Source of the DNA: Dudresnaya verticillata
Taxonomy: Eukaryota
Direction of reading: 5' to 3'
NCBI GenBank assembly: GCA_977862235.1
Contig: OZ374565.1
Span: forward strand, 2,604,001-2,668,000
DNA: 64,000 nt
Position numbers and translations under genes: made by a program. Below, in pieces: positions 4,032-49,295 of this stretch. The notes under the pieces were generated by a model. It did not search any database, was not told the origin of the DNA, and saw nothing but the letters and a program-made list of their open reading frames with translations. Position 1 is the first letter of the stretch, and each line of letters begins with the position of its first letter.

Positions 4032-4077
4032 AAGATAAGTCAGTGGGGCCCGGGCAAATTTCAAGGTGAGGGATCAC
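4032..4077 (+). promoter_or_regulatory. 5S internal-control-region (box A / IE / box C) mimic in the element 5' UTR; also at 20738-20783, 29259-29304, 33943-33988, 39634-39679, 44293-44338, 48977-49022, 55960-56005, 63823-63868
   Basis: AAGATAAGTC (4032-4041) equals 5S +51..+60 and AGGTGAGGGATCAC (4064-4077) equals 5S +83..+96, with the same 32-bp offset as in the 5S gene (9117 to 9149). Regulatory function is inferred. Confidence 0.7.
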
Positions 4078-4360
4078 CTTAAAAGTAAGCGCAAAATAGG
4101 AAACGCGTGACCGTCGGCGACGACGGCGGCGGCGACGGCGGCGACGACGACGGCGTCGCGGCGCAGATCGACGGCGCAAAAAGAGACAAAAGTAGACCGC
4201 GCTCGCCCGCCGTCAAAGGTGAAGGGCTGAAAAACCCCGCACCGACGCGCCGTCGCGCGCTCGAACAGGCGGCACCGCCGCCGAAAAGATCGGTGCAGAA
4301 CTTGTTGAGATATCCGCGAAACAAAATTTTCGGCAGATCGCGAGGGGGTACTGAGGTGAG

Positions 4361-9066: not shown

Positions 9067-9186
9067 ACATTCGGCCATACTACGCAGACATGCTCCGTAT
9101 CCCATCCCGAACTGCGAAGATAAGTCTCGTCAGGCTGGTTTAGTACTGAGGTGAGGGATCACTCTGGAATCGCCAGTGCCGAATGT
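9067..9186 (+). rRNA. 5S rRNA: 5S rRNA (intact)
   Basis: 120 nt; terminal helix ACATTCGGC/GCCGAATGT; CCCATCCCGAAC loop C; TTAGTACT loop E; GTGA-GGGA-TCAC hairpin; followed by a T-run. Confidence 0.97.
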
Positions 9187-9198
9187 TTTTATTTTTTT
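9186..9198 (+). terminator. RNA Pol III terminator TTTTTATTTTTTT (after every 5S 3' end)
   Basis: Oligo-T tract immediately after the 5S gene. Confidence 0.9.
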
Positions 9199-10275
9199 GC
9201 ACCTCATTCCTTCCTCCCCGCCGCCCTCTGCGTACATTGCTGCCTTGCATACCTCTCCCACAGAATCCCCGACCCACTGCCTCTGTACAGCGTATTCTTT
9301 TCACTCGCACTTTTCCCCTTTTCTTGTAAGTGGGAGGGAGTCTGAGAGTGTTTGCAGGTGTCTAGGGGTTGTTTAGGGTTAGGTCTAGGGTTAGTTTGGT
9401 TACTGTGGTACGCGAGGGGCATGATATTGGGAGGGTAAAGGGTCTAGTGTTGGTGCATGGAATGAATCATGGTGGTGGAAGGAATGGATCAGTGTGGTGG
9501 ATGAATTGGATTTAGGGACATAGAATTGGATTAGATTTAGTACCCAGAAGATTGGATCAAGGATCACCACAATCGGATCAAGTCTGGTGGCTGGGGTGAG
9601 GGTGGCTTGGACGTTTGTGCTCATAACTTTGGAACGGCTGGGGCTAGGGAGCTGCTCAGTAGCTGAATCGAAGCGTCTCGTTGCTGCGCATTGCGTAGCG
9701 CTCTTACCCTCCTAAATCGACTTTTTGGCGCGTTTCTATGGTGCAAAACGTCCCCACGGGCCGTCGGCAGCTTTTGAGCAGATCAAATAGGGGTTTGGGG
9801 CATGTATGGTTATGGGTGGGTTTAGGGGTGTTAGGGATGTGTCATTTTAACGCGTTTAGGAGTGTAGGGAGTGGGAATGAAAGTAGTAAGGATGAGGAAA
9901 TGGAAAGGGAAGGATGAGAAAGTATAGTACAATGCAGTAATACAAATCACGGAATGCATCAGGTTGGGATCCAATAAGGGTGGATGGATTGGATCAACGG
10001 AAGTCAAGGCGTTATAGGATTGGATCTAGGGGCTCTGTAAATTAGATTGGGTGCTGGTTTCATTGAACCAAGGGGTCAGAACGTCCATGAGCTGGTTGAC
10101 TGTATTTATATTGAATCCTGCGTTTAGAGTAAATGGTATACGGTTATGGGTCATTACTTTAATGCTCCACGTGTACACTACAGTCGGATGGACATTGGAC
10201 GCAGGAGTCTTTAGTCGATGACGGGGAGTGCAGTTGATGGCGCATTTAAATAGGGGTACGGCGGGAACAGCAAGC

Positions 10276-10395
10276 ACATTCGGCCATACTACGCAGACAT
10301 GCTCCGTATCCCATCCCGAACTGCGAAGATAAGTCTCGTCAGGCTGGTTTAGTACTGAGGTGAGGGATCACTCTGGAATCGCCAGTGCCGAATGT
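10276..10395 (+). rRNA. 5S rRNA: 5S rRNA (intact)
   Basis: Same sequence as 9067-9186. Confidence 0.97.
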
Positions 10396-11484
10396 TTTTA
10401 TTTTTTTGCACCTCATTCCTTCCTCCCCGCCGCCCTCTGCGTACATTGCTGCCTTGCATACCTCTCCCACAGAATCCCCGACCCACTGCCTCTGTACAGC
10501 GTATTCTTTTCACTCGCACTTTTCCCCTTTTCTTGTAAGTGGGAGGGAGTCTGAGAGTGTTTGCAGGTGTCTAGGGGTTGTTTAGGGTTAGGTCTAGGGT
10601 TAGTTTGGTTACTGTGGTACGCGAGGGGCATGATATTGGGAGGGTAAAGGGTCTAGTGTTGGTGCATGGAATGAATCATGGTGGTGGAAGGAATGGATCA
10701 GTGTGGTGGATGAATTGGATTTAGGGACATAGAATTGGATTAGATTTAGTACCCAGAAGATTGGATCAAGGATCACCACAATCGGATCAAGTCTGGTGGC
10801 TGGGGTGAGGGTGGCTTGGACGTTTGTGCTCATAACTTTGGAACGGCTGGGGCTAGGGAGCTGCTCAGTAGCTGAATCGAAGCGTCTCGTTGCTGCGCAT
10901 TGCGTAGCGCTCTTACCCTCCTAAATCGACTTTTTGGCGCGTTTCTATGGTGCAAAACGTCCCCACGGGCCGTCGGCAGCTTTTGAGCAGATCAAATAGG
11001 GGTTTGGGGCATGTATGGTTATGGGTGGGTTTAGGGGTGTTAGGGATGTGTCATTTTAACGCGTTTAGGAGTGTAGGGAGTGGGAATGAAAGTAGTAAGG
11101 ATGAGGAAATGGAAAGGGAAGGATGAGAAAGTATAGTACAATGCAGTAATACAAATCACGGAATGCATCAGGTTGGGATCCAATAAGGGTGGATGGATTG
11201 GATCAACGGAAGTCAAGGCGTTATAGGATTGGATCTAGGGGCTCTGTAAATTAGATTGGGTGCTGGTTTCATTGAACCAAGGGGTCAGAACGTCCATGAG
11301 CTGGTTGACTGTATTTATATTGAATCCTGCGTTTAGAGTAAATGGTATACGGTTATGGGTCATTACTTTAATGCTCCACGTGTACACTACAGTCGGATGG
11401 ACATTGGACGCAGGAGTCTTTAGTCGATGACGGGGAGTGCAGTTGATGGCGCATTTAAATAGGGGTACGGCGGGAACAGCAAGC

Positions 11485-11604
11485 ACATTCGGCCATACTA
11501 CGCAGACATGCTCCGTATCCCATCCCGAACTGCGAAGATAAGTCTCGTCAGGCTGGTTTAGTACTGAGGTGAGGGATCACTCTGGAATCGCCAGTGCCGA
11601 ATGT
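11485..11604 (+). rRNA. 5S rRNA: 5S rRNA (intact)
   Basis: Same sequence as 9067-9186. Confidence 0.97.
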
Positions 11605-12693
11605 TTTTATTTTTTTGCACCTCATTCCTTCCTCCCCGCCGCCCTCTGCGTACATTGCTGCCTTGCATACCTCTCCCACAGAATCCCCGACCCACTGCCT
11701 CTGTACAGCGTATTCTTTTCACTCGCACTTTTCCCCTTTTCTTGTAAGTGGGAGGGAGTCTGAGAGTGTTTGCAGGTGTCTAGGGGTTGTTTAGGGTTAG
11801 GTCTAGGGTTAGTTTGGTTACTGTGGTACGCGAGGGGCATGATATTGGGAGGGTAAAGGGTCTAGTGTTGGTGCATGGAATGAATCATGGTGGTGGAAGG
11901 AATGGATCAGTGTGGTGGATGAATTGGATTTAGGGACATAGAATTGGATTAGATTTAGTACCCAGAAGATTGGATCAAGGATCACCACAATCGGATCAAG
12001 TCTGGTGGCTGGGGTGAGGGTGGCTTGGACGTTTGTGCTCATAACTTTGGAACGGCTGGGGCTAGGGAGCTGCTCAGTAGCTGAATCGAAGCGTCTCGTT
12101 GCTGCGCATTGCGTAGCGCTCTTACCCTCCTAAATCGACTTTTTGGCGCGTTTCTATGGTGCAAAACGTCCCCACGGGCCGTCGGCAGCTTTTGAGCAGA
12201 TCAAATAGGGGTTTGGGGCATGTATGGTTATGGGTGGGTTTAGGGGTGTTAGGGATGTGTCATTTTAACGCGTTTAGGAGTGTAGGGAGTGGGAATGAAA
12301 GTAGTAAGGATGAGGAAATGGAAAGGGAAGGATGAGAAAGTATAGTACAATGCAGTAATACAAATCACGGAATGCATCAGGTTGGGATCCAATAAGGGTG
12401 GATGGATTGGATCAACGGAAGTCAAGGCGTTATAGGATTGGATCTAGGGGCTCTGTAAATTAGATTGGGTGCTGGTTTCATTGAACCAAGGGGTCAGAAC
12501 GTCCATGAGCTGGTTGACTGTATTTATATTGAATCCTGCGTTTAGAGTAAATGGTATACGGTTATGGGTCATTACTTTAATGCTCCACGTGTACACTACA
12601 GTCGGATGGACATTGGACGCAGGAGTCTTTAGTCGATGACGGGGAGTGCAGTTGATGGCGCATTTAAATAGGGGTACGGCGGGAACAGCAAGC

Positions 12694-12813
12694 ACATTCG
12701 GCCATACTACGCAGACATGCTCCGTATCCCATCCCGAACTGCGAAGATAAGTCTCGTCAGGCTGGTTTAGTACTGAGGTGAGGGATCACTCTGGAATCGC
12801 CAGTGCCGAATGT
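12694..12813 (+). rRNA. 5S rRNA: 5S rRNA (intact)
   Basis: Same sequence as 9067-9186. Confidence 0.97.
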
Positions 12814-13902
12814 TTTTATTTTTTTGCACCTCATTCCTTCCTCCCCGCCGCCCTCTGCGTACATTGCTGCCTTGCATACCTCTCCCACAGAATCCCCGAC
12901 CCACTGCCTCTGTACAGCGTATTCTTTTCACTCGCACTTTTCCCCTTTTCTTGTAAGTGGGAGGGAGTCTGAGAGTGTTTGCAGGTGTCTAGGGGTTGTT
13001 TAGGGTTAGGTCTAGGGTTAGTTTGGTTACTGTGGTACGCGAGGGGCATGATATTGGGAGGGTAAAGGGTCTAGTGTTGGTGCATGGAATGAATCATGGT
13101 GGTGGAAGGAATGGATCAGTGTGGTGGATGAATTGGATTTAGGGACATAGAATTGGATTAGATTTAGTACCCAGAAGATTGGATCAAGGATCACCACAAT
13201 CGGATCAAGTCTGGTGGCTGGGGTGAGGGTGGCTTGGACGTTTGTGCTCATAACTTTGGAACGGCTGGGGCTAGGGAGCTGCTCAGTAGCTGAATCGAAG
13301 CGTCTCGTTGCTGCGCATTGCGTAGCGCTCTTACCCTCCTAAATCGACTTTTTGGCGCGTTTCTATGGTGCAAAACGTCCCCACGGGCCGTCGGCAGCTT
13401 TTGAGCAGATCAAATAGGGGTTTGGGGCATGTATGGTTATGGGTGGGTTTAGGGGTGTTAGGGATGTGTCATTTTAACGCGTTTAGGAGTGTAGGGAGTG
13501 GGAATGAAAGTAGTAAGGATGAGGAAATGGAAAGGGAAGGATGAGAAAGTATAGTACAATGCAGTAATACAAATCACGGAATGCATCAGGTTGGGATCCA
13601 ATAAGGGTGGATGGATTGGATCAACGGAAGTCAAGGCGTTATAGGATTGGATCTAGGGGCTCTGTAAATTAGATTGGGTGCTGGTTTCATTGAACCAAGG
13701 GGTCAGAACGTCCATGAGCTGGTTGACTGTATTTATATTGAATCCTGCGTTTAGAGTAAATGGTATACGGTTATGGGTCATTACTTTAATGCTCCACGTG
13801 TACACTACAGTCGGATGGACATTGGACGCAGGAGTCTTTAGTCGATGACGGGGAGTGCAGTTGATGGCGCATTTAAATAGGGGTACGGCGGGAACAGCAA
13901 GC

Positions 13903-14022
13903 ACATTCGGCCATACTACGCAGACATGCTCCGTATCCCATCCCGAACTGCGAAGATAAGTCTCGTCAGGCTGGTTTAGTACTGAGGTGAGGGATCACTC
14001 TGGAATCGCCAGTGCCGAATGT
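13903..14022 (+). rRNA. 5S rRNA: 5S rRNA (intact)
   Basis: Same sequence as 9067-9186. Confidence 0.97.
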
Positions 14023-15111
14023 TTTTATTTTTTTGCACCTCATTCCTTCCTCCCCGCCGCCCTCTGCGTACATTGCTGCCTTGCATACCTCTCCCACAGA
14101 ATCCCCGACCCACTGCCTCTGTACAGCGTATTCTTTTCACTCGCACTTTTCCCCTTTTCTTGTAAGTGGGAGGGAGTCTGAGAGTGTTTGCAGGTGTCTA
14201 GGGGTTGTTTAGGGTTAGGTCTAGGGTTAGTTTGGTTACTGTGGTACGCGAGGGGCATGATATTGGGAGGGTAAAGGGTCTAGTGTTGGTGCATGGAATG
14301 AATCATGGTGGTGGAAGGAATGGATCAGTGTGGTGGATGAATTGGATTTAGGGACATAGAATTGGATTAGATTTAGTACCCAGAAGATTGGATCAAGGAT
14401 CACCACAATCGGATCAAGTCTGGTGGCTGGGGTGAGGGTGGCTTGGACGTTTGTGCTCATAACTTTGGAACGGCTGGGGCTAGGGAGCTGCTCAGTAGCT
14501 GAATCGAAGCGTCTCGTTGCTGCGCATTGCGTAGCGCTCTTACCCTCCTAAATCGACTTTTTGGCGCGTTTCTATGGTGCAAAACGTCCCCACGGGCCGT
14601 CGGCAGCTTTTGAGCAGATCAAATAGGGGTTTGGGGCATGTATGGTTATGGGTGGGTTTAGGGGTGTTAGGGATGTGTCATTTTAACGCGTTTAGGAGTG
14701 TAGGGAGTGGGAATGAAAGTAGTAAGGATGAGGAAATGGAAAGGGAAGGATGAGAAAGTATAGTACAATGCAGTAATACAAATCACGGAATGCATCAGGT
14801 TGGGATCCAATAAGGGTGGATGGATTGGATCAACGGAAGTCAAGGCGTTATAGGATTGGATCTAGGGGCTCTGTAAATTAGATTGGGTGCTGGTTTCATT
14901 GAACCAAGGGGTCAGAACGTCCATGAGCTGGTTGACTGTATTTATATTGAATCCTGCGTTTAGAGTAAATGGTATACGGTTATGGGTCATTACTTTAATG
15001 CTCCACGTGTACACTACAGTCGGATGGACATTGGACGCAGGAGTCTTTAGTCGATGACGGGGAGTGCAGTTGATGGCGCATTTAAATAGGGGTACGGCGG
15101 GAACAGCAAGC

Positions 15112-15231
15112 ACATTCGGCCATACTACGCAGACATGCTCCGTATCCCATCCCGAACTGCGAAGATAAGTCTCGTCAGGCTGGTTTAGTACTGAGGTGAG
15201 GGATCACTCTGGAATCGCCAGTGCCGAATGT
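15112..15231 (+). rRNA. 5S rRNA: 5S rRNA (intact)
   Basis: Same sequence as 9067-9186. Confidence 0.97.
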
Positions 15232-16320
15232 TTTTATTTTTTTGCACCTCATTCCTTCCTCCCCGCCGCCCTCTGCGTACATTGCTGCCTTGCATACCTC
15301 TCCCACAGAATCCCCGACCCACTGCCTCTGTACAGCGTATTCTTTTCACTCGCACTTTTCCCCTTTTCTTGTAAGTGGGAGGGAGTCTGAGAGTGTTTGC
15401 AGGTGTCTAGGGGTTGTTTAGGGTTAGGTCTAGGGTTAGTTTGGTTACTGTGGTACGCGAGGGGCATGATATTGGGAGGGTAAAGGGTCTAGTGTTGGTG
15501 CATGGAATGAATCATGGTGGTGGAAGGAATGGATCAGTGTGGTGGATGAATTGGATTTAGGGACATAGAATTGGATTAGATTTAGTACCCAGAAGATTGG
15601 ATCAAGGATCACCACAATCGGATCAAGTCTGGTGGCTGGGGTGAGGGTGGCTTGGACGTTTGTGCTCATAACTTTGGAACGGCTGGGGCTAGGGAGCTGC
15701 TCAGTAGCTGAATCGAAGCGTCTCGTTGCTGCGCATTGCGTAGCGCTCTTACCCTCCTAAATCGACTTTTTGGCGCGTTTCTATGGTGCAAAACGTCCCC
15801 ACGGGCCGTCGGCAGCTTTTGAGCAGATCAAATAGGGGTTTGGGGCATGTATGGTTATGGGTGGGTTTAGGGGTGTTAGGGATGTGTCATTTTAACGCGT
15901 TTAGGAGTGTAGGGAGTGGGAATGAAAGTAGTAAGGATGAGGAAATGGAAAGGGAAGGATGAGAAAGTATAGTACAATGCAGTAATACAAATCACGGAAT
16001 GCATCAGGTTGGGATCCAATAAGGGTGGATGGATTGGATCAACGGAAGTCAAGGCGTTATAGGATTGGATCTAGGGGCTCTGTAAATTAGATTGGGTGCT
16101 GGTTTCATTGAACCAAGGGGTCAGAACGTCCATGAGCTGGTTGACTGTATTTATATTGAATCCTGCGTTTAGAGTAAATGGTATACGGTTATGGGTCATT
16201 ACTTTAATGCTCCACGTGTACACTACAGTCGGATGGACATTGGACGCAGGAGTCTTTAGTCGATGACGGGGAGTGCAGTTGATGGCGCATTTAAATAGGG
16301 GTACGGCGGGAACAGCAAGC

Positions 16321-16409
16321 ACATTCGGCCATACTACGCAGACATGCTCCGTATCCCATCCCGAACTGCGAAGATAAGTCTCGTCAGGCTGGTTTAGTAC
16401 TGAGGTGAG
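16321..16409 (+). pseudogene. 5S rRNA 5' part (+1..+89), interrupted by copies C and D
   Basis: 5S sequence stops at ...CTGAGGTGAG and element sequence TTCAAC begins. Confidence 0.95.
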
Positions 16410-19400
16410 TTCAACTTTATAACAGGTGATCATATTCTAATATTTGTCGACGTACAATCTACTGTAGTATCACAACAAAGTTAAACCCCAACTCAAAACA
16501 ACTTGCACATCTACACCTCCTGTTGGATCCCTTCCATCAGGCACTTGACGTTGTTCTGCACCAGTCGCGCCGCGTGCCTGTGGAATAGAGCCGCTCGCGA
16601 AACACCGCGAGTTACCATGGCCCGAGAAGCCACAGTATCCGCCAACTCTTGCATGTACTTGTGCGCCTCCGGGTGCCAGCCACCTAGTGTGGTCATCGGC
16701 ACCGGCACAAGTCTTGCCCCCGGTCCGGCAGCCTGGATGAAGCCACGGTAAGTCCGCACCTTGTCAGCGTGGGCGTTCTTCAGCGTCCCTTGCGGGTTTG
16801 TTATGCAGCTGAGAATGCGTTGTTCTGACGACAGTGGATGACTGATTGTGACGTCCAGGTAGTCCGTTCCTCCTTCTGTTCCAAGCGCCTTGATGTCCGG
16901 CCGATCCAGGTGAGCCCCCACAGGGCGGGGCTCCACAATCGGGGTGCGTGTCGCACGTTTCAGATCCGAAGCCAGCAGACGAACCTGAGAGTCGTGGCGC
17001 CACGACCGAGGAGATCCGCTGTTCCGCATGCCGTTCGGACAAATCAGCAGATGGTCGCCGTGAACATCCATCATCTTCTTGCACCCGGCCCGAGGACACT
17101 CCGTGTCGGGTTCCAGCAGTGGAATCCGACAGTAGAATCGAAGCCATACGCGGTAGTCCCGATCCGCAATGTACGTCTTCATGCCTGGTGCCGGCTGGCA
17201 CTTGAGCCAGTCCTTGGCGCCCGGCGCGCCAAGGGAAGCTCGGAAAGCTTGCGTCCGCCTGTCCCCGAGCGGCAGCTCGGCTTGCACTTTCTTCAGTACC
17301 AACCGCGTCAAGTCCCTCTGGCGTGGGCACTCGTCGCTGTCGATCTTCTCCAGGTCCAGGGCATCCTCACTATGGCACTTGGCGCTCCAGTCTTCGTGCG
17401 CTTCTACTGCAAAAGGATCGTCAGAAAGAGCAGTGTTCACAGAAGCGGGTAAGATAGAACGCAGTAAGTTGCGGGTCAGTGAAAGGGACGCCAAAAACGC
17501 GCTCGAGTTCATGTCGCCAGCTCCCGAAATACCGATACCGAAGCTGGGCTCTTTCGTGCGCAGGGGAAGCTGAAGTTCGCGGAAGGTGTCCCTCGGTAGG
17601 ACTCCTCCCACGAGCTTGCGCATGCAAGCCTCAATCTTCTGGTCGAAGAGCTCGGCGCCCTTCGCCGTGGCGGATGATGGAACTACTCGCAGCAGGTAGT
17701 TCAGCCGGCAGACTCCGGCACAGTTGCGGAGTAGAGTGATGGCCACGTGTAGGTCTTCTAGTCCCGAAATTGCGTCCAGCAGGGGCTGGATGGACTCGAC
17801 ATGGCCATTCACGCTCTCCTCCATGTAGTTCTGCGTTCCAATCGGAGCCTGAAGTACTGTAGTGCCTTCTCCGTAGCTCTGCCCAAGATCCGATGGGTAG
17901 GCAGCGCAGTCTTCTGGGTCGGGTGCAGTAGGCCACCAAACAGTACACTTGTCCATGCGCAGGTGGAAGCCATAGCCCTTAGCTTCCTCGGAGTCAAAGA
18001 AGGACAGAACCTTCCTGAGTACGGCGTGTTTCGCCACGATGACGCCGTCGTCCAGGTAGAACAGTGACAGCAGCAAGTTGTTCGCCCCCTCCGCTTGCTG
18101 ATTGCGGCCCGAGCGCCGCAGGTCGGCGGTGAGTTCCTTCAACTGTTTGATCAGTGCCTGCAGCACCAAAGCAAACAGTAACGGCCCGAGCGGGTCACCT
18201 TGCTGTACACCAGTGACACTCCGCAGTAGAGTGTCACCCATCCACAGGTGCGGGCCCTCAGAGTCATAACAGAATCTGACCCACGGTAGTAGTTCAGGCA
18301 TATGTCGGCGGACCTCCTTCATGAATGCTTTGCGGCTGACAAGGTTGAAGGCATTCTTCAAGTCCACTTGTAGCAACCCGTAGGACTTGTCATGGCCGTG
18401 AGACTTCTGCAGCTTCCGGACCGCGTGTACAATCGCTTCTGTGCCGCCCGAGGTTGCGACCCCGAGCTGAAGCGGTTCGAGGTATGCCTTGGCCTTGGGA
18501 GCGACTCTGGTCATGAGCATAGAGCTCACGAGTCGTCGGATTGTCTCTCCTACAGCAATGGGGCGGACACCGCCGGTGCGCTTCTTCAGAGCCGTGAGAG
18601 GAGCGCTGGCAATCCAAGGCGACAGCTCCGCAGGTCCTGCGCCGCTGGCCAGCACGTTGACCATTTTGGTGAGCCCGCCAAGCAGGCCCGTGTGCTCGTG
18701 AGTGGTCGGGACTGAGAGCAGTTCCTGCAGATGCGTCGGTGATAGTCCTGTGCCCCCCGAGGCCGAAGCCCGGGGGAACTTGGCAACTGCTTTTCGTACT
18801 TCGTCGGCTGTGAAAGGCACGAAGTCAGGCATGGTCGGCAGCGGTTCGGACTGGTCAAGCTCGTGGTCCGCGTCGGTTTGCGGTACGGACTGTGGGTGCT
18901 TGTCCTTCATGGACTGTATCACAGAGTCTGTGGCTGGCGCGATTCCATCAGAGTCTAGAGCTGCTGCTGCCTTACTGTAGGCGCCCTCCTTTGCGAGGCG
19001 AAGGGCTCGTGAGGCATTGATACGGCGTTGCTCTTCTGCGGAAGGCGCAGTCTGCTCACGGAATGTCGAGCCCTTCAAGGCCTCCTGCCATAGGGCGTCG
19101 TAATCCTTGAGTCCCCAGCGGCGGATTCGATCGCGGAAGGTGCCGATCGAGGACGCAGAGGTTGACGCGCCGGCCCTTGCACTCGCTGCGGGAGGATTGG
19201 ACAAGACGGCTGCTGGAAAAAGCAGGAATGCAGTGAGCTCTTTGGTGGCTTCCTGAGAGTTGTTTGCGTTCGTAAAAGCCCATACCGTCTTGGACAGTGC
19301 GTCGCGCACCTCTGCGCGGACGCGAGACGGTATATGTGTGACCATAGGGATATGCGAGCGACAGATATCTTCGACCGCCGGCAGAAGCTGCCCTCCTGGA

Positions 19401-21052
19401 CCCCGCGCAGCGTGTCGGGTTTGCGCAGTTGGTACCACTTGAGTAGCTGGTACCGGTGCAGGAGGCGGCTCCTGGCTGTCCGGGATTCGTCGCGGGGCTG
19501 GCAGGATATCGTCCGCCGGCTCGCCGTCCTCGGGTTGCGTCTCCGTGACCGCGTCCAGAGCAGGAGTCTGTGATGGCGCGGCTACAGTTTCTTCACGGCT
19601 CGGTGTCGTCAATTGGTTGGACGGGACGTGGGAGAACGCCGGAGTGCGAGTGGCGGGACATGCGCTGCAATTCTTGTACCGCATACTGTACATGCCTTCA
19701 CTGTTCATGCGGGAGCTACAGTGGGTAGGCATGTACTTGTTGTGAGTCACACAGTACCATACTCCATAGTCCAGGAGCTGCTGCTTGAGAGGCTCGATGT
19801 CGGTCCTCGTCGGTGGTCCTCGCCTGCCAGGAACATGCATCTTCCGCAGGTGCATGAGTAGCGCTTCTACAGTAGGCAGTGAGGACGACTGGCAGCCCAG
19901 AGGACAGCTGGTACTGTTTGTCGGGCGGTGTTTTGCCGAAGGCATAAAGCATGGAGAGAGCCATACCTTCGGCATGTCGGGGTGCTGCTGACCAATCATG
20001 GTTACAGCGCTGGGTAAGGTACCTGTAAAGGTCCTCTACAGTAGGTTCCCTCGGGGCACAGACCTCCTAACCGGGACGCAAGCCTGTCGTCCGTCGTCAG
20101 TCTGTTCGGGACACCTCCAGAGGGTGCTACAGGTGGCCTTGCTGCGAGATGAAGGCCTCTTCGCAGCGTAGGGCGTGAGATTGCGCAATTTGCGCACGAG
20201 CTCGCGCAAAAGGGCGCACGTGTTAGCGTTCGCGCGTAGACTTATCGGACGTTCCCTTCCCTGCCGCAGCTGAGAAGAGTCTCTTCACTGCGGTCCTGTA
20301 ACGCGCGGTACTTCTCGTTTGCACAAGCTCTCAATGGGGTCGCAGAACCACCGTTTACCTGTGAGTGCCCACAGGATTTTTGGCCTCCCCCGAAGGTTCG
20401 CTGGCAGGACGTTCGCTCGATCTTAGAAGGGGTGGTTTCAAAACAGGATCCACCAGGCTTAAGCCACGTTACCCCAACTTCGACGTTGCTTGGCACGTTT
20501 CTGCGATGAGCTTGTGGGTCACGAGCCGCCTACCACTCAAGGTCGAGGGTCTTTGGCGATTCCCACACTTGTAGGTCTCTCGGCACTTCCCGAAGGAAGA
20601 TTTTACAGGACAAGCCTGGCCTTTACCAATCTGTCAGTTGAAGGGTGTGAAACCCCTCTGTCGACAGTCCACGGCAGCCTAGACAGAGTCTAGGCTGTGC
20701 CGGGTACAAGCAAAACGCGTACAGGGCCAGGGAAAGAAAGATAAGTCAGTGGGGCCCGGGCAAATTTCAAGGTGAGGGATCACCTTAAAAGTAAGCGCAA
20801 AATAGGAAACGCGTGACCGTCGGCGACGACGGCGGCGGCGACGGCGGCGACGACGACGGCGTCGCGGCGCAGATCGACGGCGCAAAAAGAGACAAAAGTA
20901 GACCGCGCTCGCCCGCCGTCAAAGGTGAAGGGCTGAAAAACCCCGCACCGACGCGCCGTCGCGCGCTCGAACAGGCGGCACCGCCGCCGAAAAGATCGGT
21001 GCAGAACTTGTTGAGATATCCGCGAAACAAAATTTTCGGCAGATCGCGAGGG
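16410..21052 (-). mobile_element. Copy C, full length (4643 bp)
   Basis: Flanked by the 14-bp duplication AGTACTGAGGTGAG (16396-16409 and 21053-21066). Confidence 0.97.
16511..19999 (-). CDS. 1162-aa RT/RLE protein, copy C (variant subfamily)
   Basis: Intact ORF with all motifs. Confidence 0.96.
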   Translation of the reverse strand: MIGQQHPDMPKVWLSPCFMPSAKHRPTNSTSCPLGCQSSSLPTVEALLMHLRKMHVPGRRGPPTRTDIEPLKQQLLDYGVWYCVTHNKYMPTHCSSRMNSEGMYSMRYKNCSACPATRTPAFSHVPSNQLTTPSREETVAAPSQTPALDAVTETQPEDGEPADDILPAPRRIPDSQEPPPAPVPATQVVPTAQTRHAARGPGGQLLPAVEDICRSHIPMVTHIPSRVRAEVRDALSKTVWAFTNANNSQEATKELTAFLLFPAAVLSNPPAASARAGASTSASSIGTFRDRIRRWGLKDYDALWQEALKGSTFREQTAPSAEEQRRINASRALRLAKEGAYSKAAAALDSDGIAPATDSVIQSMKDKHPQSVPQTDADHELDQSEPLPTMPDFVPFTADEVRKAVAKFPRASASGGTGLSPTHLQELLSVPTTHEHTGLLGGLTKMVNVLASGAGPAELSPWIASAPLTALKKRTGGVRPIAVGETIRRLVSSMLMTRVAPKAKAYLEPLQLGVATSGGTEAIVHAVRKLQKSHGHDKSYGLLQVDLKNAFNLVSRKAFMKEVRRHMPELLPWVRFCYDSEGPHLWMGDTLLRSVTGVQQGDPLGPLLFALVLQALIKQLKELTADLRRSGRNQQAEGANNLLLSLFYLDDGVIVAKHAVLRKVLSFFDSEEAKGYGFHLRMDKCTVWWPTAPDPEDCAAYPSDLGQSYGEGTTVLQAPIGTQNYMEESVNGHVESIQPLLDAISGLEDLHVAITLLRNCAGVCRLNYLLRVVPSSATAKGAELFDQKIEACMRKLVGGVLPRDTFRELQLPLRTKEPSFGIGISGAGDMNSSAFLASLSLTRNLLRSILPASVNTALSDDPFAVEAHEDWSAKCHSEDALDLEKIDSDECPRQRDLTRLVLKKVQAELPLGDRRTQAFRASLGAPGAKDWLKCQPAPGMKTYIADRDYRVWLRFYCRIPLLEPDTECPRAGCKKMMDVHGDHLLICPNGMRNSGSPRSWRHDSQVRLLASDLKRATRTPIVEPRPVGAHLDRPDIKALGTEGGTDYLDVTISHPLSSEQRILSCITNPQGTLKNAHADKVRTYRGFIQAAGPGARLVPVPMTTLGGWHPEAHKYMQELADTVASRAMVTRGVSRAALFHRHAARLVQNNVKCLMEGIQQEV

Positions 21053-21066
21053 AGTACTGAGGTGAG

Positions 21067-22497
21067 TTCAACTTTATAACAGGTGATCATATTCTAATAT
21101 TTGTCGACGTACAATCTACTGTAGTATCACAACAAAGTTAAACCCCAACTCAAAACAACTTGCACATCTACACCTCCTGTTGGATCCCTTCCATCAGGCA
21201 CTTGACGTTGTTCTGCACCAGTCGCGCCGCGTGCCTGTGGAATAGAGCCGCTCGCGAAACACCGCGAGTTACCATGGCCCGAGAAGCCACAGTATCCGCC
21301 AACTCTTGCATGTACTTGTGCGCCTCCGGGTGCCAGCCACCTAGTGTGGTCATCGGCACCGGCACAAGTCTTGCCCCCGGTCCGGCAGCCTGGATGAAGC
21401 CACGGTAAGTCCTCACCTTGTCAGCGTGGGCGTTCTTCAGCGTCCCTTGCGGGTTTGTTATGCAGCTGAGAATGCGTTGTTCTGACGACAGTGGGTGACT
21501 GATTGTGACGTCCAGGTAGTCCGTTCCTCCTTCTGTTCCAAGCGCCTTGATGTCCGGCCGATCCAGGTGAGCCCCCACAGGGCGGGGCTCCACAATCGGG
21601 GTGCGTGTCGCACGTTTCAGATCCGAAGCCAGCAGACGAACCTGAGAGTCGTGGCGCCACGACCGAGGAGATCCGCTGTTCCGCATGCCGTTCGGACAAA
21701 TCAGCAGATGGTCGCCGTGAACATCCATCATCTTCTTGCACCCGGCCCGAGGACACTCCGTGTCGGGTTCCAGCAGTGGAATCCGACAGTAGAATCGAAG
21801 CCATACGCGGTAGTCCCGATCCGCAATGTACGTCTTCATGCCTGGTGCCGGCTGGCACTTGAGCCAGTCCTTGGCGCCCGGCGCGCCAAGGGAAGCTCGG
21901 AAAGCTTGCGTCCGCCTGTCCCCGAGCGGCAGCTCGGCTTGCACTTTCTTCAGTACCAACCGCGTCAAGTCGCTCTGGCGTGGGCACTCGTCGCTGTCGA
22001 TCTTCTCCAGGTCCAGAGCATCCTCACTATGGCACTTGGCGCTCCAGTCTTCGTGCGCTTCTACTGCAAAAGGATCGTCAGAAAGAGCAGTGTTCACAGA
22101 AGCGGGTAAGATAGAACGCAGTAAGTTGCGGGTCAGTGAAAGGGACGCCAAAAACGCGCTCGAGTTCATGTCGCCAGCTCCCGAAATACCGATTCCGAAG
22201 CTGGGCTCTTTCGTGCGCAGGGGAAGCTGAAGTTCGCGGAAGGTGTCCCTCGGTAGGACTCCCCCCACGAGCTTGCGCATGCAAGCCTCAATCTTCTGGT
22301 CGAAGAGCTCGGCGCCCTTCGCCGTGGCGGATGATGGAACTACTCGCAGCAGGTAGTTCAGCCGGCAGACTCCGGCACAGTTGCGGAGTAGAGTGATGGC
22401 CACGTGTAGGTCTTCTAGTCCCGAAATTGCGTCCAGCAGGGGCTGGATGGACTCGACATGGCCATTCACGCTCTCCTCCATGTAGTTCTGCGTTCCA
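21067..22497 (-). mobile_element. Copy D, 5'-truncated (~1.43 kb; C-terminal and endonuclease part only)
   Basis: Element sequence stops at CGTTCCA, then the TSD and the 3' part of 5S follow. Confidence 0.95.
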
Positions 22498-22541
22498 GTA
22501 CTGAGGTGAGGGATCACTCTGGAATCGCCAGTGCCGAATGT
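22497..22541 (+). pseudogene. 5S rRNA 3' part (+76..+120) including the TSD
   Basis: AGTACTGAGGTGAGGGATCAC...GCCGAATGT followed by the terminator. Confidence 0.95.
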
Positions 22542-24928: not shown

Positions 24929-27900
24929 TTCAACTTTATAACAGGTGACCATATTCTAATATTTGTCGACGTACAATCTACTGTAGTATCACAACAAAGT
25001 TAAACCCCAACTCAAAACAACCTGCACATCTACACCTCCTGTTGGATCCCTTCCATCAGGCACTTGACGTTGTTCTGCACCAGTCGCGCCGCGTGCCTGT
25101 GGAACAGAGCCGCTCGCGAAACACCGCGAGTTACCATGGCCCGAGAAGCCACGGTATCCGCCAACTCTTGCATATACTTGTGCGCCTCCGGGTGCCAGCC
25201 ACCTAGTGTGGTCATCGGCACCGGCACAAGCCTTGCCCCCGGTCCGGCAGCCTGGATGAAGCCACGATAAGTCCGCACCTTGTCAGCGTGGGCGTTCTTC
25301 AGCGTCCCTTGCGGGTTTGTTATGCAGCTGAGAATGCGTTGTTCTGACGACAGTGGATGACTGATTGTGACGTCCAGGTAGTCCGTTCCTCCTTCTGTTC
25401 CAAGCGCCTTGATGTCCGGCCGATCCAAGTGAGCCCCCACAGGGCGGGGCTCCACAATCGGGGTGCGTGTCGCACGTTTCAGATCCGAAGCCAGCAGACG
25501 AACCTGAGAGTCGTGGCGCCACGACCGAGGAGATCCGCTGTTCCGCATGCCGTTCGGACAAATCAGCAGATGGTCGCCGTGAACATCCATCATCTTCTTG
25601 CACCCGGCCCGAGGACACTCCGTGTCGGGTTCCAGCAGTGGAATCCGACAGTAGAATCGAAGCCATACGCGGTAGTCCCGATCCGCAATGTACGTCTTCA
25701 TGCCTGGTGCCGGCTGGCACTTGAGCCAGTCCTTGGCGCCCGGCACGCCAAGGGAAGCTCGGAAAGCTTGCGTCCGCCTGTCCCCGAGCGGCAGCTCGGC
25801 TTGCACTTTCTTCAGAACCAACCGCGTCAAGTCCCGCTGGCGCGGGCACTCGTCGCTGTCGATCTTCTCCAGGTCCAGGGCATCCTCACTATGGCACTTG
25901 GCGCTCCAGTCTTCGTGCGCTTCTACTGCAAAAGGATCGTCAGAAAGAGCAGTGTTCACAGAAGCGGGTAAGATAGAACGCAGTAAGTTGCGGGTCAGTG
26001 AAAGGGACGCCAAAAACGCGCTCGAGTTCATGTCGCCAGCTCCCGAAATACCGATTCCGAAGCTGGGCTCTTTCGTGCGCAGGGGAAGCTGAAGTTCGCG
26101 GAAGGTGTCCCTCGGTAGGACTCCTCCCACGAGCTTGCGCATGCAAGCCTCAATCTTCTGGTCGAAGAGCTCGGCGCCCTTTGCCGTGGCGGATGATGGA
26201 ACTACTCGCAGCAGGTAGTTCAGCCGGCAGACTCCGGCACAGTTGCGGAGTAGAGTGATGGCCACGTGTAGGTCTTCTAGTCCCGAAATTGCGTCCAGCA
26301 GGGGCTGGATGGACTCGACATGGCCATTCACGCTCTCCTCCATGTAGTTCTGCGTTCCAATCGGAGCCTGAAGTACTGTAGTGCCTTCTCCGTAGCTCTG
26401 CCCAAGATCCGACGGGTAGGCAGCGCAGTCTTCTGGGTCGGGTGCAGTAGGCCACCAAACAGTACACTTGTCCATGCGCAGGTGGAAGCCATAGCCCTTA
26501 GCTTCCTCGGAGTCAAAGAAGGACAGAACCTTCCTGAGTACGGCGTGTTTCGCCACGATGACGCCGTCGTCCAGGTAGAACAGTGACAGCAGCAAGTTGT
26601 TCGCCCCCTCCGCTTGCTGATTGCGGCCCGAGCGCCGCAGGTCGGCGGTGAGTTCCTTCAACTGTTTGATCAGTGCCTGCAGCACCAAAGCAAACAGTAA
26701 CGGCCCGAGCGGGTCACCTTGCTGTACACCAGTGACACTCCGCAGTAGAGTGTCACCCATCCACAGGTGCGGGCCCTCAGAGTCATAACAGTATCTGACC
26801 CACGGTAGTAGTTCAGGCATATGTCGGCGGACCTCCTTCATGAATGCTTTGCGGCTGACAAGGTTGAAGGCATTCTTCAAGTCCACTTGTAGCAACCCGT
26901 AGGACTTGTCATGGCCGTGAGACTTCTGCAGCTTCCGGACCGCGTGTACAATGGCTTCTGTGCCGCCCGAGGTTGCGACCCCGAGCTGAAGCGGTTCGAG
27001 GTATGCCTTGGCCTTGGGAGCGACTCTGGTCATGAGCATAGAGCTCACGAGTCGTCGGATTGTCTCTCCTACAGCAATGGGGCGGACACCGCCGGTGCGC
27101 TTCTTCAGAGCCGTGAGAGGAGCGCTGGCAATCCAAGGCGACAGCTCCGCAGGTCCTGCGCCGCTGGCCAGCACGTTGACCATTTTGGTGAGCCCGCCAA
27201 GCAGGCCCGTGTGCTCGTGAGTGGTCGGGACTGAGAGCAGTTCCTGCAGATGCGTCGGTGATAGTCCTGTTCCCCCCGAGGCCGAAGCCCGGGGGAACTT
27301 GGCCACTGCTTTTCGTACTTCGTCGGCTGTGAAAGGCACGAAGTCAGGCATGGTCGGCAGCGGTTCGGACTGGTCAAGCTCGTGGTCCGCGTCGGTTTGC
27401 GGTACGGACTGCGGGTGCTTGTCCTTCATGGACTGTATCACAGAGTCTGTGGCTGGGGCGATTCCATCAGAGTCTAGAGCTGCTGCTGCCTTACTGTAGG
27501 CGCCCTCCTTTGCAAGGCGAAGGGCTCGTGAGGCATTGATACGGCGTTGCTCTTCTGCGGAAGGCGCAGTCTGCTCACGGAATGTCGAGCCCTTCAAGGC
27601 CTCCTGCCATAGGGCGTCGTAATCCTTGAGTCCCCAGCGTCGGATTCGATCGCGGAAGGTGCCGATCGAGGACGCAGAGGTTGACGCGCTGGCCCTTGCA
27701 CTCGCGGCGGGAGGATTGGACAAGACGGCTGCTGGAAAAAGCAGGAATGCAGTGAGCTCTTTGGTGGCTTCCTGAGAGTTGGTTGCGTTCGTAAAAGCCC
27801 ATACCGTCTTGGACAGTGCGTCGCGCACCTCGGCGCGGACGCGAGACGGTATATGTGTGACCATAGGGATATGCGAGCGACAGATGTCTTCGACCGCCGG

Positions 27901-29582
27901 CAGAAGCTGCCCTCCTGGACCCCGCGCAACGGGTGGGGTTTGCGCAGTTGGTACCTCTCGAGTAGCAGGTACCGGTGCAGGAGGCGGCTCCTGGCTGTCC
28001 GGGATTCGTCGCGGGGCTGGCAGGATATCGTCCGCTGGCTCGCCGTCCTCGGGTTGCGTCTCCGTGACCGCGTCCAGAGCAGGAGACTGTGATGGCGCGG
28101 CTACAGTTTCTTCACGGCTCGGTGTCGTCAATTGGTTGGACGGGACGTGGGAGAACGCCGGAGTGCGAGTAGCGGGACATGCGCTGCAATTCTTGTACCG
28201 CATACTGTACATGCCTTCACTGTTCATGCGGGAGCTACAGTGGGTGGGCATGTACTTGTTGTGAGTCACACAGTACCATACTCCATAGTCCAGGAGCTGC
28301 TGCTTGAGAGGCTCGATGTCGGTCCTCGTCGGTGGTCCTCGCCTGCCAGGAACATGCATCTTCCGCAGGTGCATGAGTAGCGCTTCTACAGTAGGCAGTG
28401 AGGACGACTGGCAGCCCAGAGGACAGCTGGTACTGTTTGTCGGGCGGTGTTTTGCCGAAGGCATAAAGCATGGAGAGAGCCATACCTTCGGCATGTCGGG
28501 GTGCTGCTGACCAATCATGGTTACAGCGCTGGGTAAGGTACCTGTAAAGGTCCTCTACAGTAGGTTCCCACGGGGCACAGACCTCCTAACCGGGACGCAA
28601 GCCTGTCGTCCGTCGTCAGTCTGTTCGGGACACCTCCAGAGGGTGCTACAGGTGGCCTTGCTGCGAGATGAGGGCCTCTTCGCAGCGTAGGGCGCGAGAT
28701 CGCGCACTTTGCGCACGAGCTCGCGCAAAAGGGCGCGCGTGTTAGCGTTCGTGCGCGCAGAGTTATCGGACGTTCCCTTCCCTGCCGCAGCTGAGAAGAC
28801 TCTCTTCACTGCGGTCCTGTAACGCGCGGTACTTCTCGTTTGCACAAGCTCTCAATGGGGTCGCAGAACCACCGTTTACCTGTGAGTGCCCACAGGATTT
28901 TTGGCCTCCCCCGAAGGTTCGCTGGCAGGACGTTCGCTCGATCTTAGAAGGGGTGGTTTCAAAACAGGATCCACCAGGCTTAAGCCACGTTACCCCAACT
29001 TCGACGTTGCTTGGCACGTTTCTGCGATGAGCTTGTGGGTCACGAGCCGCCTACCACTCAAGGTCGAGGGTCTTTGGCGATTCCCACACTTGTAGGTCTC
29101 TCGGCACTTCCCGAAGGAAGATTTTACAGGACAAGCCTGGCCTTTACCAATCTGTCAGTTGAAGGGTGTGAAACCCCTCTGTCGACAGTCCACGGCAGCC
29201 TAGACAGAGTCTAGGCTGTGCCGGGTACAAGCAAAACGCGTACAGGGCCAGGGAAAGAAAGATAAGTCAGTGGGGCCCGGGCAAATTTCAAGGTGAGGGA
29301 TCACCTTAAAAGTAAGCGCAAAATAGGAAACGCGTGACCGTCGGCGACGACGGCGGCGGCGACGGCGGCGACGACGACGGCGTCGCGGCGCAGATCGGCG
29401 GCGCGGAAAGAGACAAAAGTAGACCGCGCTCGCCCGCCCGCGAAGGTGAAGGGCTGAAAAACCCCGCACCGACGCGCCGTCGCGCGCTCGAACAGGCGGC
29501 ACCGCCGCCGAAAAGATCGGTGCAGAACTTGCTGAGAAATCTCCGAAACAAAAAATTCGGCAGATCGCGAGGGGTTCTCCGG
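24929..29582 (-). mobile_element. Copy E, full length with the longest 5' end
   Basis: Ends ...AGATCGCGAGGGGTTCTCCGG, then a complex target-derived junction (29583-29612). Confidence 0.96.
25030..28518 (-). CDS. 1162-aa RT/RLE protein, copy E
   Basis: Intact ORF. Confidence 0.96.
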   Translation of the reverse strand: MIGQQHPDMPKVWLSPCFMPSAKHRPTNSTSCPLGCQSSSLPTVEALLMHLRKMHVPGRRGPPTRTDIEPLKQQLLDYGVWYCVTHNKYMPTHCSSRMNSEGMYSMRYKNCSACPATRTPAFSHVPSNQLTTPSREETVAAPSQSPALDAVTETQPEDGEPADDILPAPRRIPDSQEPPPAPVPATREVPTAQTPPVARGPGGQLLPAVEDICRSHIPMVTHIPSRVRAEVRDALSKTVWAFTNATNSQEATKELTAFLLFPAAVLSNPPAASARASASTSASSIGTFRDRIRRWGLKDYDALWQEALKGSTFREQTAPSAEEQRRINASRALRLAKEGAYSKAAAALDSDGIAPATDSVIQSMKDKHPQSVPQTDADHELDQSEPLPTMPDFVPFTADEVRKAVAKFPRASASGGTGLSPTHLQELLSVPTTHEHTGLLGGLTKMVNVLASGAGPAELSPWIASAPLTALKKRTGGVRPIAVGETIRRLVSSMLMTRVAPKAKAYLEPLQLGVATSGGTEAIVHAVRKLQKSHGHDKSYGLLQVDLKNAFNLVSRKAFMKEVRRHMPELLPWVRYCYDSEGPHLWMGDTLLRSVTGVQQGDPLGPLLFALVLQALIKQLKELTADLRRSGRNQQAEGANNLLLSLFYLDDGVIVAKHAVLRKVLSFFDSEEAKGYGFHLRMDKCTVWWPTAPDPEDCAAYPSDLGQSYGEGTTVLQAPIGTQNYMEESVNGHVESIQPLLDAISGLEDLHVAITLLRNCAGVCRLNYLLRVVPSSATAKGAELFDQKIEACMRKLVGGVLPRDTFRELQLPLRTKEPSFGIGISGAGDMNSSAFLASLSLTRNLLRSILPASVNTALSDDPFAVEAHEDWSAKCHSEDALDLEKIDSDECPRQRDLTRLVLKKVQAELPLGDRRTQAFRASLGVPGAKDWLKCQPAPGMKTYIADRDYRVWLRFYCRIPLLEPDTECPRAGCKKMMDVHGDHLLICPNGMRNSGSPRSWRHDSQVRLLASDLKRATRTPIVEPRPVGAHLDRPDIKALGTEGGTDYLDVTISHPLSSEQRILSCITNPQGTLKNAHADKVRTYRGFIQAAGPGARLVPVPMTTLGGWHPEAHKYMQELADTVASRAMVTRGVSRAALFHRHAARLVQNNVKCLMEGIQQEV

Positions 29583-29612
29583 GTACTGAGGTGAGGACTG
29601 AGGTCAGGTGAG

Positions 29613-34252: not shown

Positions 34253-34268
34253 TGAGTACTGAGGTGAG

Positions 34269-35284
34269 TTCAACTTTATAACAGGTGACCATATTCTAAT
34301 ATTTGTCGACGTACAATCTACTGTAGTATCACAACAAAGTTAAACCCCAACTCAAAACAACCTGCACATCTACACCTCCTGTTGGATCCCTTCCATCAGG
34401 CACTTGACGTTGTTCTGCACCAGTCGCGCCGCGTGCCTGTGGAACAGAGCCGCTCGCGAAACACCGCGAGTTACCATGGCCCGAGAAGCCACGGTATCCG
34501 CCAACTCTTGCATATACTTGTGCGCCTCCGGGTGCCAGCCACCTAGTGTGGTCATCGGCACCGGCACAAGCCTTGCCCCCGGTCCGGCAGCCTGGATGAA
34601 GCCACGGTAAGTCCGCACCTTGTCAGCGTGGGCGTTCTTCAGCGTCCCTTGCGGGTTTGTTATGCAGCTGAGAATGCGTTGTTCTGACGACAGTGGATGA
34701 CTGATTGTGACGTCCAGGTAGTCCGTTCCTCCTTCTGTTCCAAGCGCCTTGATGTCCGGCCGATCCAAGTGAGCCCCCACCGGGCGGGGCTCCACAATCG
34801 GGGTGCGTGTCGCACGTTTCAGATCCGAAGCCAGCAGACGAACCTGAGAGTCGTGGCGCCACGACCGAGGAGATCCGCTGTTCCGCATGCCGTTCGGACA
34901 AATCAGCAGATGGTCGCCGTGAACATCCATCATCTTCTTGCACCCGGCCCGAGGACACTCCGTGTCGGGTTCCAGCAGTGGAATCCGACAGTAGAATCGA
35001 AGCCATACGCGGTAGTCCCGATCCGCAATGTACGTCTTCATGCCTGGTGCCGGCTGGCACTTGAGCCAGTCCTTGGCGCCCGGCACGCCAAGGGAAGCTC
35101 GGAAAGCTTGCGTCCGCCTGTCCCCGAGCGGCAGCTCGGCTTGCACTTTCTTCAGAACCAACCGCGTCAAGTCCCGCTGGCGCGGGCACTCGTCGCTGTC
35201 GATCTTCTCCAGGTCCAGGGCATCCTCACTATGGCACTTGGCGCTCCAGTCTTCGTGCGCTTCTACTGCAAAAGGATCGTCAGA
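34269..35284 (-). mobile_element. Copy G, 5'-truncated (~1.0 kb)
   Basis: Stops at GGATCGTCAGA; short GATCGTCA duplication, then the TSD (35290-35303). Confidence 0.95.
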
Positions 35285-35303
35285 TCGTCAGTACTGAGGT
35301 GAG

Positions 35304-49286: not shown

Positions 49287-49295
49287 TGAGGTGAG

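Follow-up and report, generated by a model that had tools for sequence, protein, structure and literature searches.

The 64,000-nt stretch of DNA analysed here (the window) is a 5S rDNA array; a 4.64-kb non-LTR retrotransposon, oriented antisense to the 5S genes, fills 79% of it with 14 copies. This is probably a CRE-like element with a single ORF and a restriction-like endonuclease (RLE), which occupies position +89/+90 of the 5S gene, likely inserts through target-primed reverse transcription (TPRT), and carries copies of 5S promoter boxes that likely bind the 5S transcription factor. The reading rests on one window of one array, and dispersed copies are possible. The initial annotation of this DNA had proposed a recently active, 5S-targeting LINE of the RLE type with CRE-like affinity, and the protein domains, the fold, the junctions and the signs of selection all support that proposal. 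The coordinates of the features are collected in Table 1.

Table 1. Features of the 5S array and of the reference element copy (positions in the window).
Feature	Position	Strand	Remark
Two tandem element copies	1..8001	-	1-4346 (cut by window edge); 4361-8001 (5' UTR joins spacer)
Six intact 1209-bp 5S repeat units	9067..16320	+	empty target sites
5S rRNA gene, 5' part +1..+89	16321..16409	+	Rfam RF00001; 89 nt identical to intact units
Full-length reference element copy	16410..21052	-	4643 nt; 3' end at 16410; no poly(A)
3' UTR	16410..16510	-	101 nt
Single ORF (P0001)	16511..19999	-	1162 aa
CCHC zinc knuckle and RLE	16754..17098	-	knuckle aa 968-987
Reverse transcriptase (RT)	17936..18586	-	Pfam RVT_1, aa 472-688; catalytic YLDD aa 648-651
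N-terminal zinc-binding region	19658..19906	-	C2H2 finger aa 32-55; CxxH...CxxC motif aa 83-114
5' UTR	20000..21052	-	1053 nt; no ATG
5S box A mimic	20738..20747	+	exact match to 5S +51..+60 (10 nt)
5S box C mimic	20770..20783	+	exact match to 5S +83..+96 (14 nt); spans insertion point
Target-site duplication (TSD)	21053..21066	+	14 nt (5S +76..+89); separates two tandem copies
5'-truncated tandem copy	21067..22496	-	1430 nt
TSD and remainder of broken 5S gene	22497..22541	+	14-nt TSD; +76..+120
Seventh intact 1209-bp 5S repeat unit	23631-24839	+	
Eight head-to-tail copies in one 5S gene	24929..56288	-	six full-length, two 5'-truncated
Lone 5'-truncated copy	57498..58283	-	about 760 nt; TSD doubled
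Copy with complete ORF	59493..64000	-	5' end outside window

Rfam recognises 11 5S sequences in the window, seven of them intact and four retaining only +1..+89. The remnants end at 16409, 24928, 57497 and 59492, exactly where four genes had been described as broken at +89/+90. Only five 5S genes are interrupted in all, and the remaining copies stand head to tail at those same sites. As initially noted, every visible 3' junction (13/13) reads GTGAG/TTCAAC (the slash marks the junction), which places the site after 5S +89, inside box C, and the minus-strand ORF bears out the antisense orientation. A poly(A) tail is absent at all 13 of these junctions. The fixed 3' end, 5' truncation, TSDs and lack of LTRs are footprints of TPRT.

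The eight complete 1162-aa ORFs counted previously were recovered, together with a ninth that is cut at the window edge and a tenth, in the copy at 51631, that carries a 1-nt frameshift. P0001 matches Pfam RVT_1 with E = 4.5e-16, and the best PDB matches are R2, then L1. When the AF2 model of aa 201-1162 (pLDDT 94) was submitted to Foldseek, the top seven matches were all R2 structures; a profile of 60 homologues likewise matches R2, in the RT as well as in the C-terminal endonuclease region (E = 3e-10 for the latter region of R2Tg). The CCHC knuckle and the PD-(D/E)xK-type endonuclease motifs (RHD 1001-1003, E1023, RPD 1033-1035, D1049 and K1080 in P0001) are conserved in the homologue alignment, and a relaxed pattern also matched. 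Structure prediction gives the N-terminal zinc region as a folded domain followed by a disordered linker; this region may serve as the DNA-recognition module, and Pfam returned no match to an N-terminal Myb domain in P0001. Polymorphic codons in the eight ORFs comprise 38 synonymous (874 sites) and 15 non-synonymous (2612 sites) changes, a ratio of about 0.13, and the six right-hand complete ORFs show 0-6 synonymous and 0-1 replacement differences. The ORFs are under purifying selection, which requires continued retrotransposition, and judging from its sequence the element is intact and likely still active. The suggestion that it could provide a compact insertion tool was overstated, as its 1162 aa compare with 1114-1169 aa in three of the four R2 proteins listed.

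By sequence, the element looks CRE-like and seems to belong to an unnamed clade with a red-algal protein among its members. In a tree of 177 of the 205 proteins compared (the ones with coverage of 330 aa or more out of 390, with no named references among them), a 29-protein clade around P0001 has a support of 1.0 and contains IDg10506t1, the one name that cluster look-ups yielded. The closest relatives are P0210 (73%), P0002 (57%) and P0003 (52%). The RT active-site motif YLDD, present in P0001 and in 157 of the 205 proteins, is typical of the CRE clade. The IDg identifiers denote Calliarthron tuberculosum gene models, according to an excerpt of PMC3734836, and on this ground the host of the element is probably a florideophyte red alga. 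The endonuclease pattern RHD-x19-E-x9-RPD-x13-D fits the SLACS/CRE consensus spacing, while the knuckle (C-x4-C-x9-H-x3-C-x13-RHD) is slightly off the spacing x1-3, x7-8, x3-4, x9-10 given for SLACS/CRE in published extracts. No named CRE proteins were found among the P0001 homologue matches. The spliced-leader-specific trypanosomatid CRE families are excluded by the 5S target and the missing poly(A), which leaves the wider clade open to the element; identity with R2 is rejected on the target, 5S and not 28S rDNA, and identity with Mutsu on the single ORF and the site at +89.

Alignment-based searches gave 80, 23 and 1 related loci (104 in total), and a P0001 search in metagenomes yielded none among 18 candidates. 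Six of the related loci fall inside the clade, and both flanks are present only in L006 (39% identity, degraded), where neither 5S nor any other Rfam match was found; 5S targeting is therefore seen in this family alone. Across the wider set, Rfam had no matches in the 60 of 104 loci scanned, blastn of the 5S gene against all 104 produced only chance-level matches of 17-20 nt, and ARAGORN found nothing in the five closest. The junction pattern of the element had no matches in viral contigs. Short contigs from one DNA run (share 0.08) are 96-100% like the ORF and the spacer; none of them runs across a junction or the promoter mimic, and they were not used as evidence.

The 5' UTR is devoid of ATG, whereas dinucleotide shuffles contain 5.9 on average and only 2 of 5000 equal it. 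Its first 400 nt have a CpG o/e of 1.49, and an internal promoter may lie near its 5' end. The 3' UTR has no unusual predicted structure (z = 0.05, 16410-16530). The 5' UTR also contains a 5S promoter mimic, which is absent from the initial annotation. Its box C block begins 32 nt after the box A block, as in the native 5S gene, and lies inside an 11-bp hairpin (20765-20790); both blocks face outward, antisense to the element ORF. None of 2000 shuffles of 5S and none of 500 shuffles of the element reached the two-block score of 24, and the highest value was 14 among 48 windows of spacer and 17 among the 80 related loci, with the qualification that this statistic was picked after the match had been seen. 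The mimic is unchanged in all nine copies that have the region, which is uninformative because the neighbouring 600 nt are equally invariant.

It is unlikely, though worth weighing, that these boxes belong to the insertion machinery, as an RNA or DNA element in which RNA complementary to 5S +83..+96 guides the cut or at which the protein regulates itself. The longer block spans the nick exactly, and the element RNA around it folds better than shuffles (z about -3.7), as such a role would predict. However, the complement is locked inside the hairpin, truncated copies without the block occupy the same site (although the block could act before copying), and only promoter mimicry accounts for a box A block at native spacing. 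Similarly improbable is a functionless origin of the boxes, either as a relic of a 5S unit captured in the 5' UTR or by chance. The mimic is marginal when scored by ordinary ungapped local alignment, with 42 and 55 of 1000 shuffles reaching its score, and it has no upstream TATA-like element, while the real 5S gene has one about 30 nt upstream. Nevertheless, both blocks match the present 5S sequence perfectly, whereas the intervening 22 nt and the flanks on either side show chance identity to 5S, a pattern that neutral decay would not yield. For a putative outward RNA (20688-21040), predicted folding does not surpass that of shuffles (z -1.07), and the T4 terminator nearest to it lacks conservation among copies.

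In the 12 5' junctions ending on target sequence, the match to 5S, counted backwards from +89, is 14 (six junctions), 13 (two), 10 (two) or 7 nt (two) long, so the TSD is exactly 14 nt in half of them and longer in none. The thirteenth visible 5' junction belongs to copy 4361-8001, which lacks its 5' kilobase and continues directly into the spacer just beyond the 5S terminator; the two overlap by 4 nt (TTCC), and a TSD is absent. The earlier statement that the element never lies in the spacer thus holds for insertion sites, as no 3' junction occurs there, and fails for this 5' end. A preference for a short motif near +89, with wide insertion at look-alike sites of which the window would display only the 5S share, is a rather remote explanation. 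Our view is limited to a single 64-kb window of one array, which leaves room for it, but no insertion is found within about 12 kb of 5S spacer, and the element's own 14-nt copy of the target site is uninserted in 9 of 9 copies with the region, which argues that the short motif is insufficient for insertion.

Slightly less probable still is that unequal crossing-over and gene conversion spread one or two old insertions, the apparent specificity then being a product of amplification instead of targeting. Among the 13 visible 5' junctions there are 11 distinct sequences, complex junctions being shared between copies 24929 and 39963 and between 35304 and 51631, and copies 24929 and 59493 do not differ across 4509 nt; the 13 junctions are therefore not 13 independent events. 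SNP patterns among the near-identical copies form a mosaic, and some copies are recombination duplicates. The 5S units are fully homogenised (100% identical among the intact ones), and the clade relative L006 lies outside 5S. Support for a possible growth of the array at the 5' junction is mixed: copy 49296 has the same unusual junction as the copy to its left, and copies 29613 and 44647 do not repeat theirs in this way. Several points speak against amplification as the source of specificity: the 5' junctions have 11 distinct sequences, truncation occurred at five different points (four with a TSD of their own), and the TSDs stop sharply at 14 nt. Furthermore, two subfamilies about 1.3% apart have the same 3' junction, and the purifying selection needs ongoing retrotransposition. 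An assembly artefact of collapsed repeats, to which the identity of the 5S units could point, is highly improbable, as mis-assembly does not make copy-specific junctions, truncations and synonymous-biased SNPs, even if the copy number and order might still be wrong.

Site-specific retrotransposition into 5S genes may then proceed along the lines known for R2. An internal promoter would give a capped RNA from the 5' end of the element, scanned to the first AUG. The antisense orientation predicts a plus-strand nick: the protein would cut the 5S sense strand after +89, and the RNA would be copied from that 3'-OH, with the 3' end of the 5S part at 16321..16409 as the presumed primer. Having no poly(A), this RNA probably ends in read-through target sequence or at a precise cut. 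A second nick in the other strand, between +75 and +76, would create the 14-nt duplication. The duplication would restore +76 onward at the 5' junction and so permit another hit at the site, and the arrays would grow longer by unequal crossing-over. Finally, the mimic probably stands in for the destroyed box C by recruiting TFIIIA/TFIIIC, and either keeps the locus open or drives an outward antisense RNA; this recruitment, proposed by analogy, is the least certain step, and we regard the chances for and against it as even.

No 5S-specific RLE element was found in the literature searched, Repbase and Fell et al. 2025 being outside that search, and the element is likely a new site-specific family. 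More tentatively, it could be the first 5S-specific RLE retrotransposon and also the first LINE to combine cutting of box C, where TFIIIA binds, with a selected 5S promoter replica, by which it would keep the Pol III machinery on the disrupted gene (for staying transcribable or for antisense self-regulation) or even help to guide insertion. The element adds a target to the short list for RLE retrotransposons, a class now being developed into tools that insert genes from an RNA template. Since box C varies from lineage to lineage, it is uncertain whether the element could be used in other hosts; the consensus for plants, in the portion of PMC10853983 concerned, shares 5 of 10 positions. As no CRE-like proteins occur among the solved structures searched, the element would provide a second model of RLE target change. 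The sequence itself gives the substrate, the nick positions and intact proteins, which makes the system testable in vitro at once. The mimic offers a test of how a wrong-facing parasite of a Pol III array gets transcribed and of compensation for a destroyed promoter.

Several known systems share parts of this organisation. R2 is the best structural and profile match in the PDB and has in common the RT-knuckle-RLE layout, the size and an rDNA target. In contrast to R2, with which it shares 16-17% identity, the element has YLDD, inserts antisense into a Pol III gene, and forms 14-nt TSDs and tandem arrays; no HDV-like ribozyme was found, either by Rfam or by a simple home-made descriptor used without a positive control. 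Mutsu of zebrafish, of the Tx1/APE class, is likewise a non-LTR element with sequence-specific insertion in 5S arrays. It differs from the single-ORF, RLE-bearing element at +89 in having, as far as extracts of PMC5340908 describe it, two ORFs, a length of about 5.5 kb and insertion about 20 nt from the 5' end of 5S; Tx1 elements use APE (PMC4640811). CRE-clade elements (CRE1/CRE2, SLACS, CZAR; MoTeR, FoTeR, Cnl1) are described in parts of PMC12278014 and PMC12857005 as having a single ORF with one or two N-terminal zinc-finger motifs, RT and a C-terminal RLE, and as hitting one position of a tandem small-RNA gene with variable TSDs. The element shares their ORF layout, their use of a single position in a tandem small-RNA gene and their variable TSDs but targets 5S box C instead of spliced-leader genes or telomeres, lacks poly(A) and carries the promoter mimic. 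Dada-5S and the Starship Voyager also target 5S rRNA genes (PMC8869645; PMC9156397), yet both are DNA elements, and the site of Voyager is 20 bp from the 5' end. Utopia, specific for U2 snRNA, is another RLE element at a small multicopy RNA gene (PMC4640811), of a NeSL-related lineage. Cassandra TRIMs, Ajax and SINE3 bear boxes of the 5S internal promoter whose spacing is conserved while the linkers drift (PMC10946416 and the relevant part of PMC10853983), and box A and box C at native spacing are shared by Cassandra, SINE3 and the element. Those elements are non-autonomous and use the promoter for their own transcription, whereas the element described here is an autonomous LINE with outward, antisense boxes that inserts into the very box it copies.

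The element is a real, young, site-specific RLE retrotransposon of 5S rRNA genes. The window is a 5S rDNA array of tandem units measuring 1209 bp each, and all ten 5S unit segments compared are completely identical to the reference unit; the 5S sequence presumably resembles florideophyte 5S RNAs. Each 5S gene ends in a long T run. Fourteen copies of the 4.64-kb element cover 50,520 of 64,000 bases in five blocks (2, 2, 8, 1 and 1 copies), every one on the minus strand. The antisense orientation claimed in the initial annotation is thereby confirmed, as are its four genes broken at +89: Rfam detected seven intact 5S genes and four whose match ends after this position.

The 3' junctions are uniform: 13 of the 13 visible ones read GTGAG|TTCAAC, as originally described, and lack poly(A). 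Twelve visible 5' junctions terminate in 5S sequence, and their match, counted back from +89, is 14 nt (six junctions), 13 (two), 10 (two) or 7 (two), with a maximum of 14. Several 5' junctions contain additional pieces of the target, in part repeated, or the element end recurs there as a slipped repeat, as would be expected by analogy with R2, for which template jumps at second-strand priming are established. At the thirteenth 5' junction (copy 4361-8001), the 5' UTR is fused to the 5S spacer through a 4-nt overlap; there is no TSD, and the fusion removes the 5S gene's 3' end. The claim that the element never lies in the spacer therefore holds for all 3' junctions but not for this 5' end. This copy has kept its ORF and lost both the promoter region and the 5S promoter mimic (box A and box C look-alike blocks); its SNPs form a mosaic with many private changes. 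Four truncated copies (about 760, 1016, 1430 and 2323 nt) each have their own TSD. The 13 visible 5' junctions comprise 11 distinct sequences, two of which are each shared by a pair of copies, and over 4509 nt there is no difference between copies 24929 and 59493, so some copies were duplicated by recombination. The copies form two subfamilies that diverge by about 1.3% and have mosaics; both use this insertion site.

Coordinates of features in the window
Feature	Position	Strand	Remark
Reference copy	16410..21052	-	
5' UTR	20000-21052		1053 nt ahead of the ORF
5S promoter mimic	20738-20783	+	270-315 nt inside the element 5' end; outward-facing
Box A look-alike	20738..20747	+	exact match to 5S +51..+60
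Box C look-alike	20770..20783	+	exact match to 5S +83..+96
TATA-like element	15080-15087		about 30 nt upstream of each 5S gene
5' junction, copy 4361-8001	7998-8004		joined to spacer
Frameshift, copy 51631	54806-54812		1-nt deletion
Eight-copy array	24929-56288		higher-order duplication, junction-type series A-B-x-D, A'-B'-y-D'; x and y are differing truncated copies

The 1162-aa ORF is intact in eight copies, the number of near-identical ORFs reported initially. Among them, 38 synonymous (874 sites) versus 15 replacement (2612 sites) polymorphic codons show a young family maintained by transposition. Apart from the deletion that frameshifts its ORF, copy 51631 is identical to copy 35304. The element protein (P0001) has a predicted folded N-terminal domain that contains a C2H2 finger as well as a CxxH...CxxC motif, followed by a predicted disordered linker (aa 125-203). 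Further on come an RT whose active-site motif is YLDD, then a CCHC knuckle and finally the residues RHD...E...RPD...D...K. With a profile built from 60 sequences, R2 was matched over the RT and also over the endonuclease region, the second match having E = 3e-10. For aa 201-1162, AF2 gave a model with a pLDDT of 94.3, and its top seven Foldseek matches were R2 structures (TM about 0.55, 16-17% identity).

Given the element orientation, the 5S sense strand would serve as primer: it ends at +89 and would be extended into the element 3' end. The second nick would fall between +75 and +76, because TSDs never exceed 14 nt. R2 proteins read mainly the flank destined to be the 5' junction. Since the TSD restores +76 onward beside the element 5' end, repeated insertion there, with R2-style reading of this flank, would yield head-to-tail arrays. 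As predicted by such a model, copy 49296 carries the same unusual junction as its left neighbour. Copies 29613 and 44647 do not repeat the neighbouring junction, so these two would need recombination, or else an insertion at the other junction. We infer these biochemical steps as well as what the mimic does.

Because the element runs opposite to a Pol III gene, it needs an internal promoter. Its 5' UTR contains no ATG in either subfamily, equalled by only 2 of 5000 dinucleotide shuffles, and this fits a capped leader on which scanning begins at the 5' end of the element itself; CAT is likewise rare (3). No HDV-like ribozyme was found in the element. The mimic is present in the reference and eight other copies. 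Its two blocks share a single alignment diagonal with 5S; between them 6 of 22 positions match, and outside them identity is at chance level. One block belongs to box A and the other to box C, whose established limits in Xenopus numbering are +50-64 and +80-97. The summed exact runs (24) were reached by 0 of 2000 5S shuffles and 0 of 500 element shuffles, and the real-sequence controls peaked at 14 for 48 spacer windows and at 17 for 80 loci. However, this statistic was picked only after the match had been noticed, and 42 and 55 of 1000 shuffles reached the mimic's plain local-alignment score; both points count against its significance. The box C part sits inside an 11-bp hairpin. Although the mimic covers the cut site, it is empty in nine of nine copies, hence site recognition needs more than +83..+96. 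The absence at the mimic of a TATA-like element, as found upstream of the real 5S gene, and of a conserved downstream terminator makes factor binding more likely than productive transcription by Pol III. Cassandra shows the same pattern, boxes and spacing being kept while linkers drift (PMC10853983); unlike in Cassandra, the mimic is part of an autonomous LINE and points outward.

The mimic was unexpected, and the 5S target was not found in print for the RLE class, the clades and target classes of which are catalogued in PMC4640811. Three 5S-targeting elements were found in print: Mutsu, which has two ORFs and inserts some 20 nt from the 5' end (PMC5340908) instead of at +89, Dada-5S (PMC8869645) and Voyager (PMC9156397). 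A 2024 review gives Mutsu as the named LINE entering 5S and states that no other within-gene insertions are reported (PMC10946416). The literature searched, to which Repbase and Fell et al. 2025 did not belong, listed no RLE element in 5S. According to reviews (PMC13586686, PMC13580325), the latter survey covers 4,464 animal assemblies and includes CRE elements, and could therefore contain an animal 5S-RLE family. On balance, we consider it rather probable that no 5S-specific RLE family has been catalogued so far.

The nearest long homologues of P0001 (36-57% identity) bear no functional name; a 399-aa fragment is closer (73%). A FastTree tree of 177 of 205 proteins, those spanning 330 or more of the 390 query residues, placed P0001 on a long branch within a 29-member clade (support 1.0). 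This clade contains IDg10506t1, whose IDg prefix marks proteins of Calliarthron tuberculosum, a red alga (PMC3734836). Proteins labelled Ephydatia, Symbiodinium and Tanacetum are found in the next tier of homologues (25-35%). Searches with P0001 returned no named CRE, R2, R4, NeSL or HERO protein, so the clade is assigned by architecture and motifs, following CRE criteria from PMC12278014 and PMC12857005. Six of 104 related loci had their best protein match inside the clade; only L006 had both flanks, without 5S, and an Rfam scan of 60 of the 104 gave zero matches, so 5S targeting is shown for the window's family only. Some clade members (proteins P0005, P0124 and P0165; L006 2828-4225) have an extra PF02902 domain, presumably a Ulp1-type protease, between zinc fingers and RT, and in P0124 the N-terminal zinc region is present twice. 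CRE-like retrotransposon contigs binned into prokaryotic MAGs (23 loci, L081-L103) are probably eukaryotic contamination.
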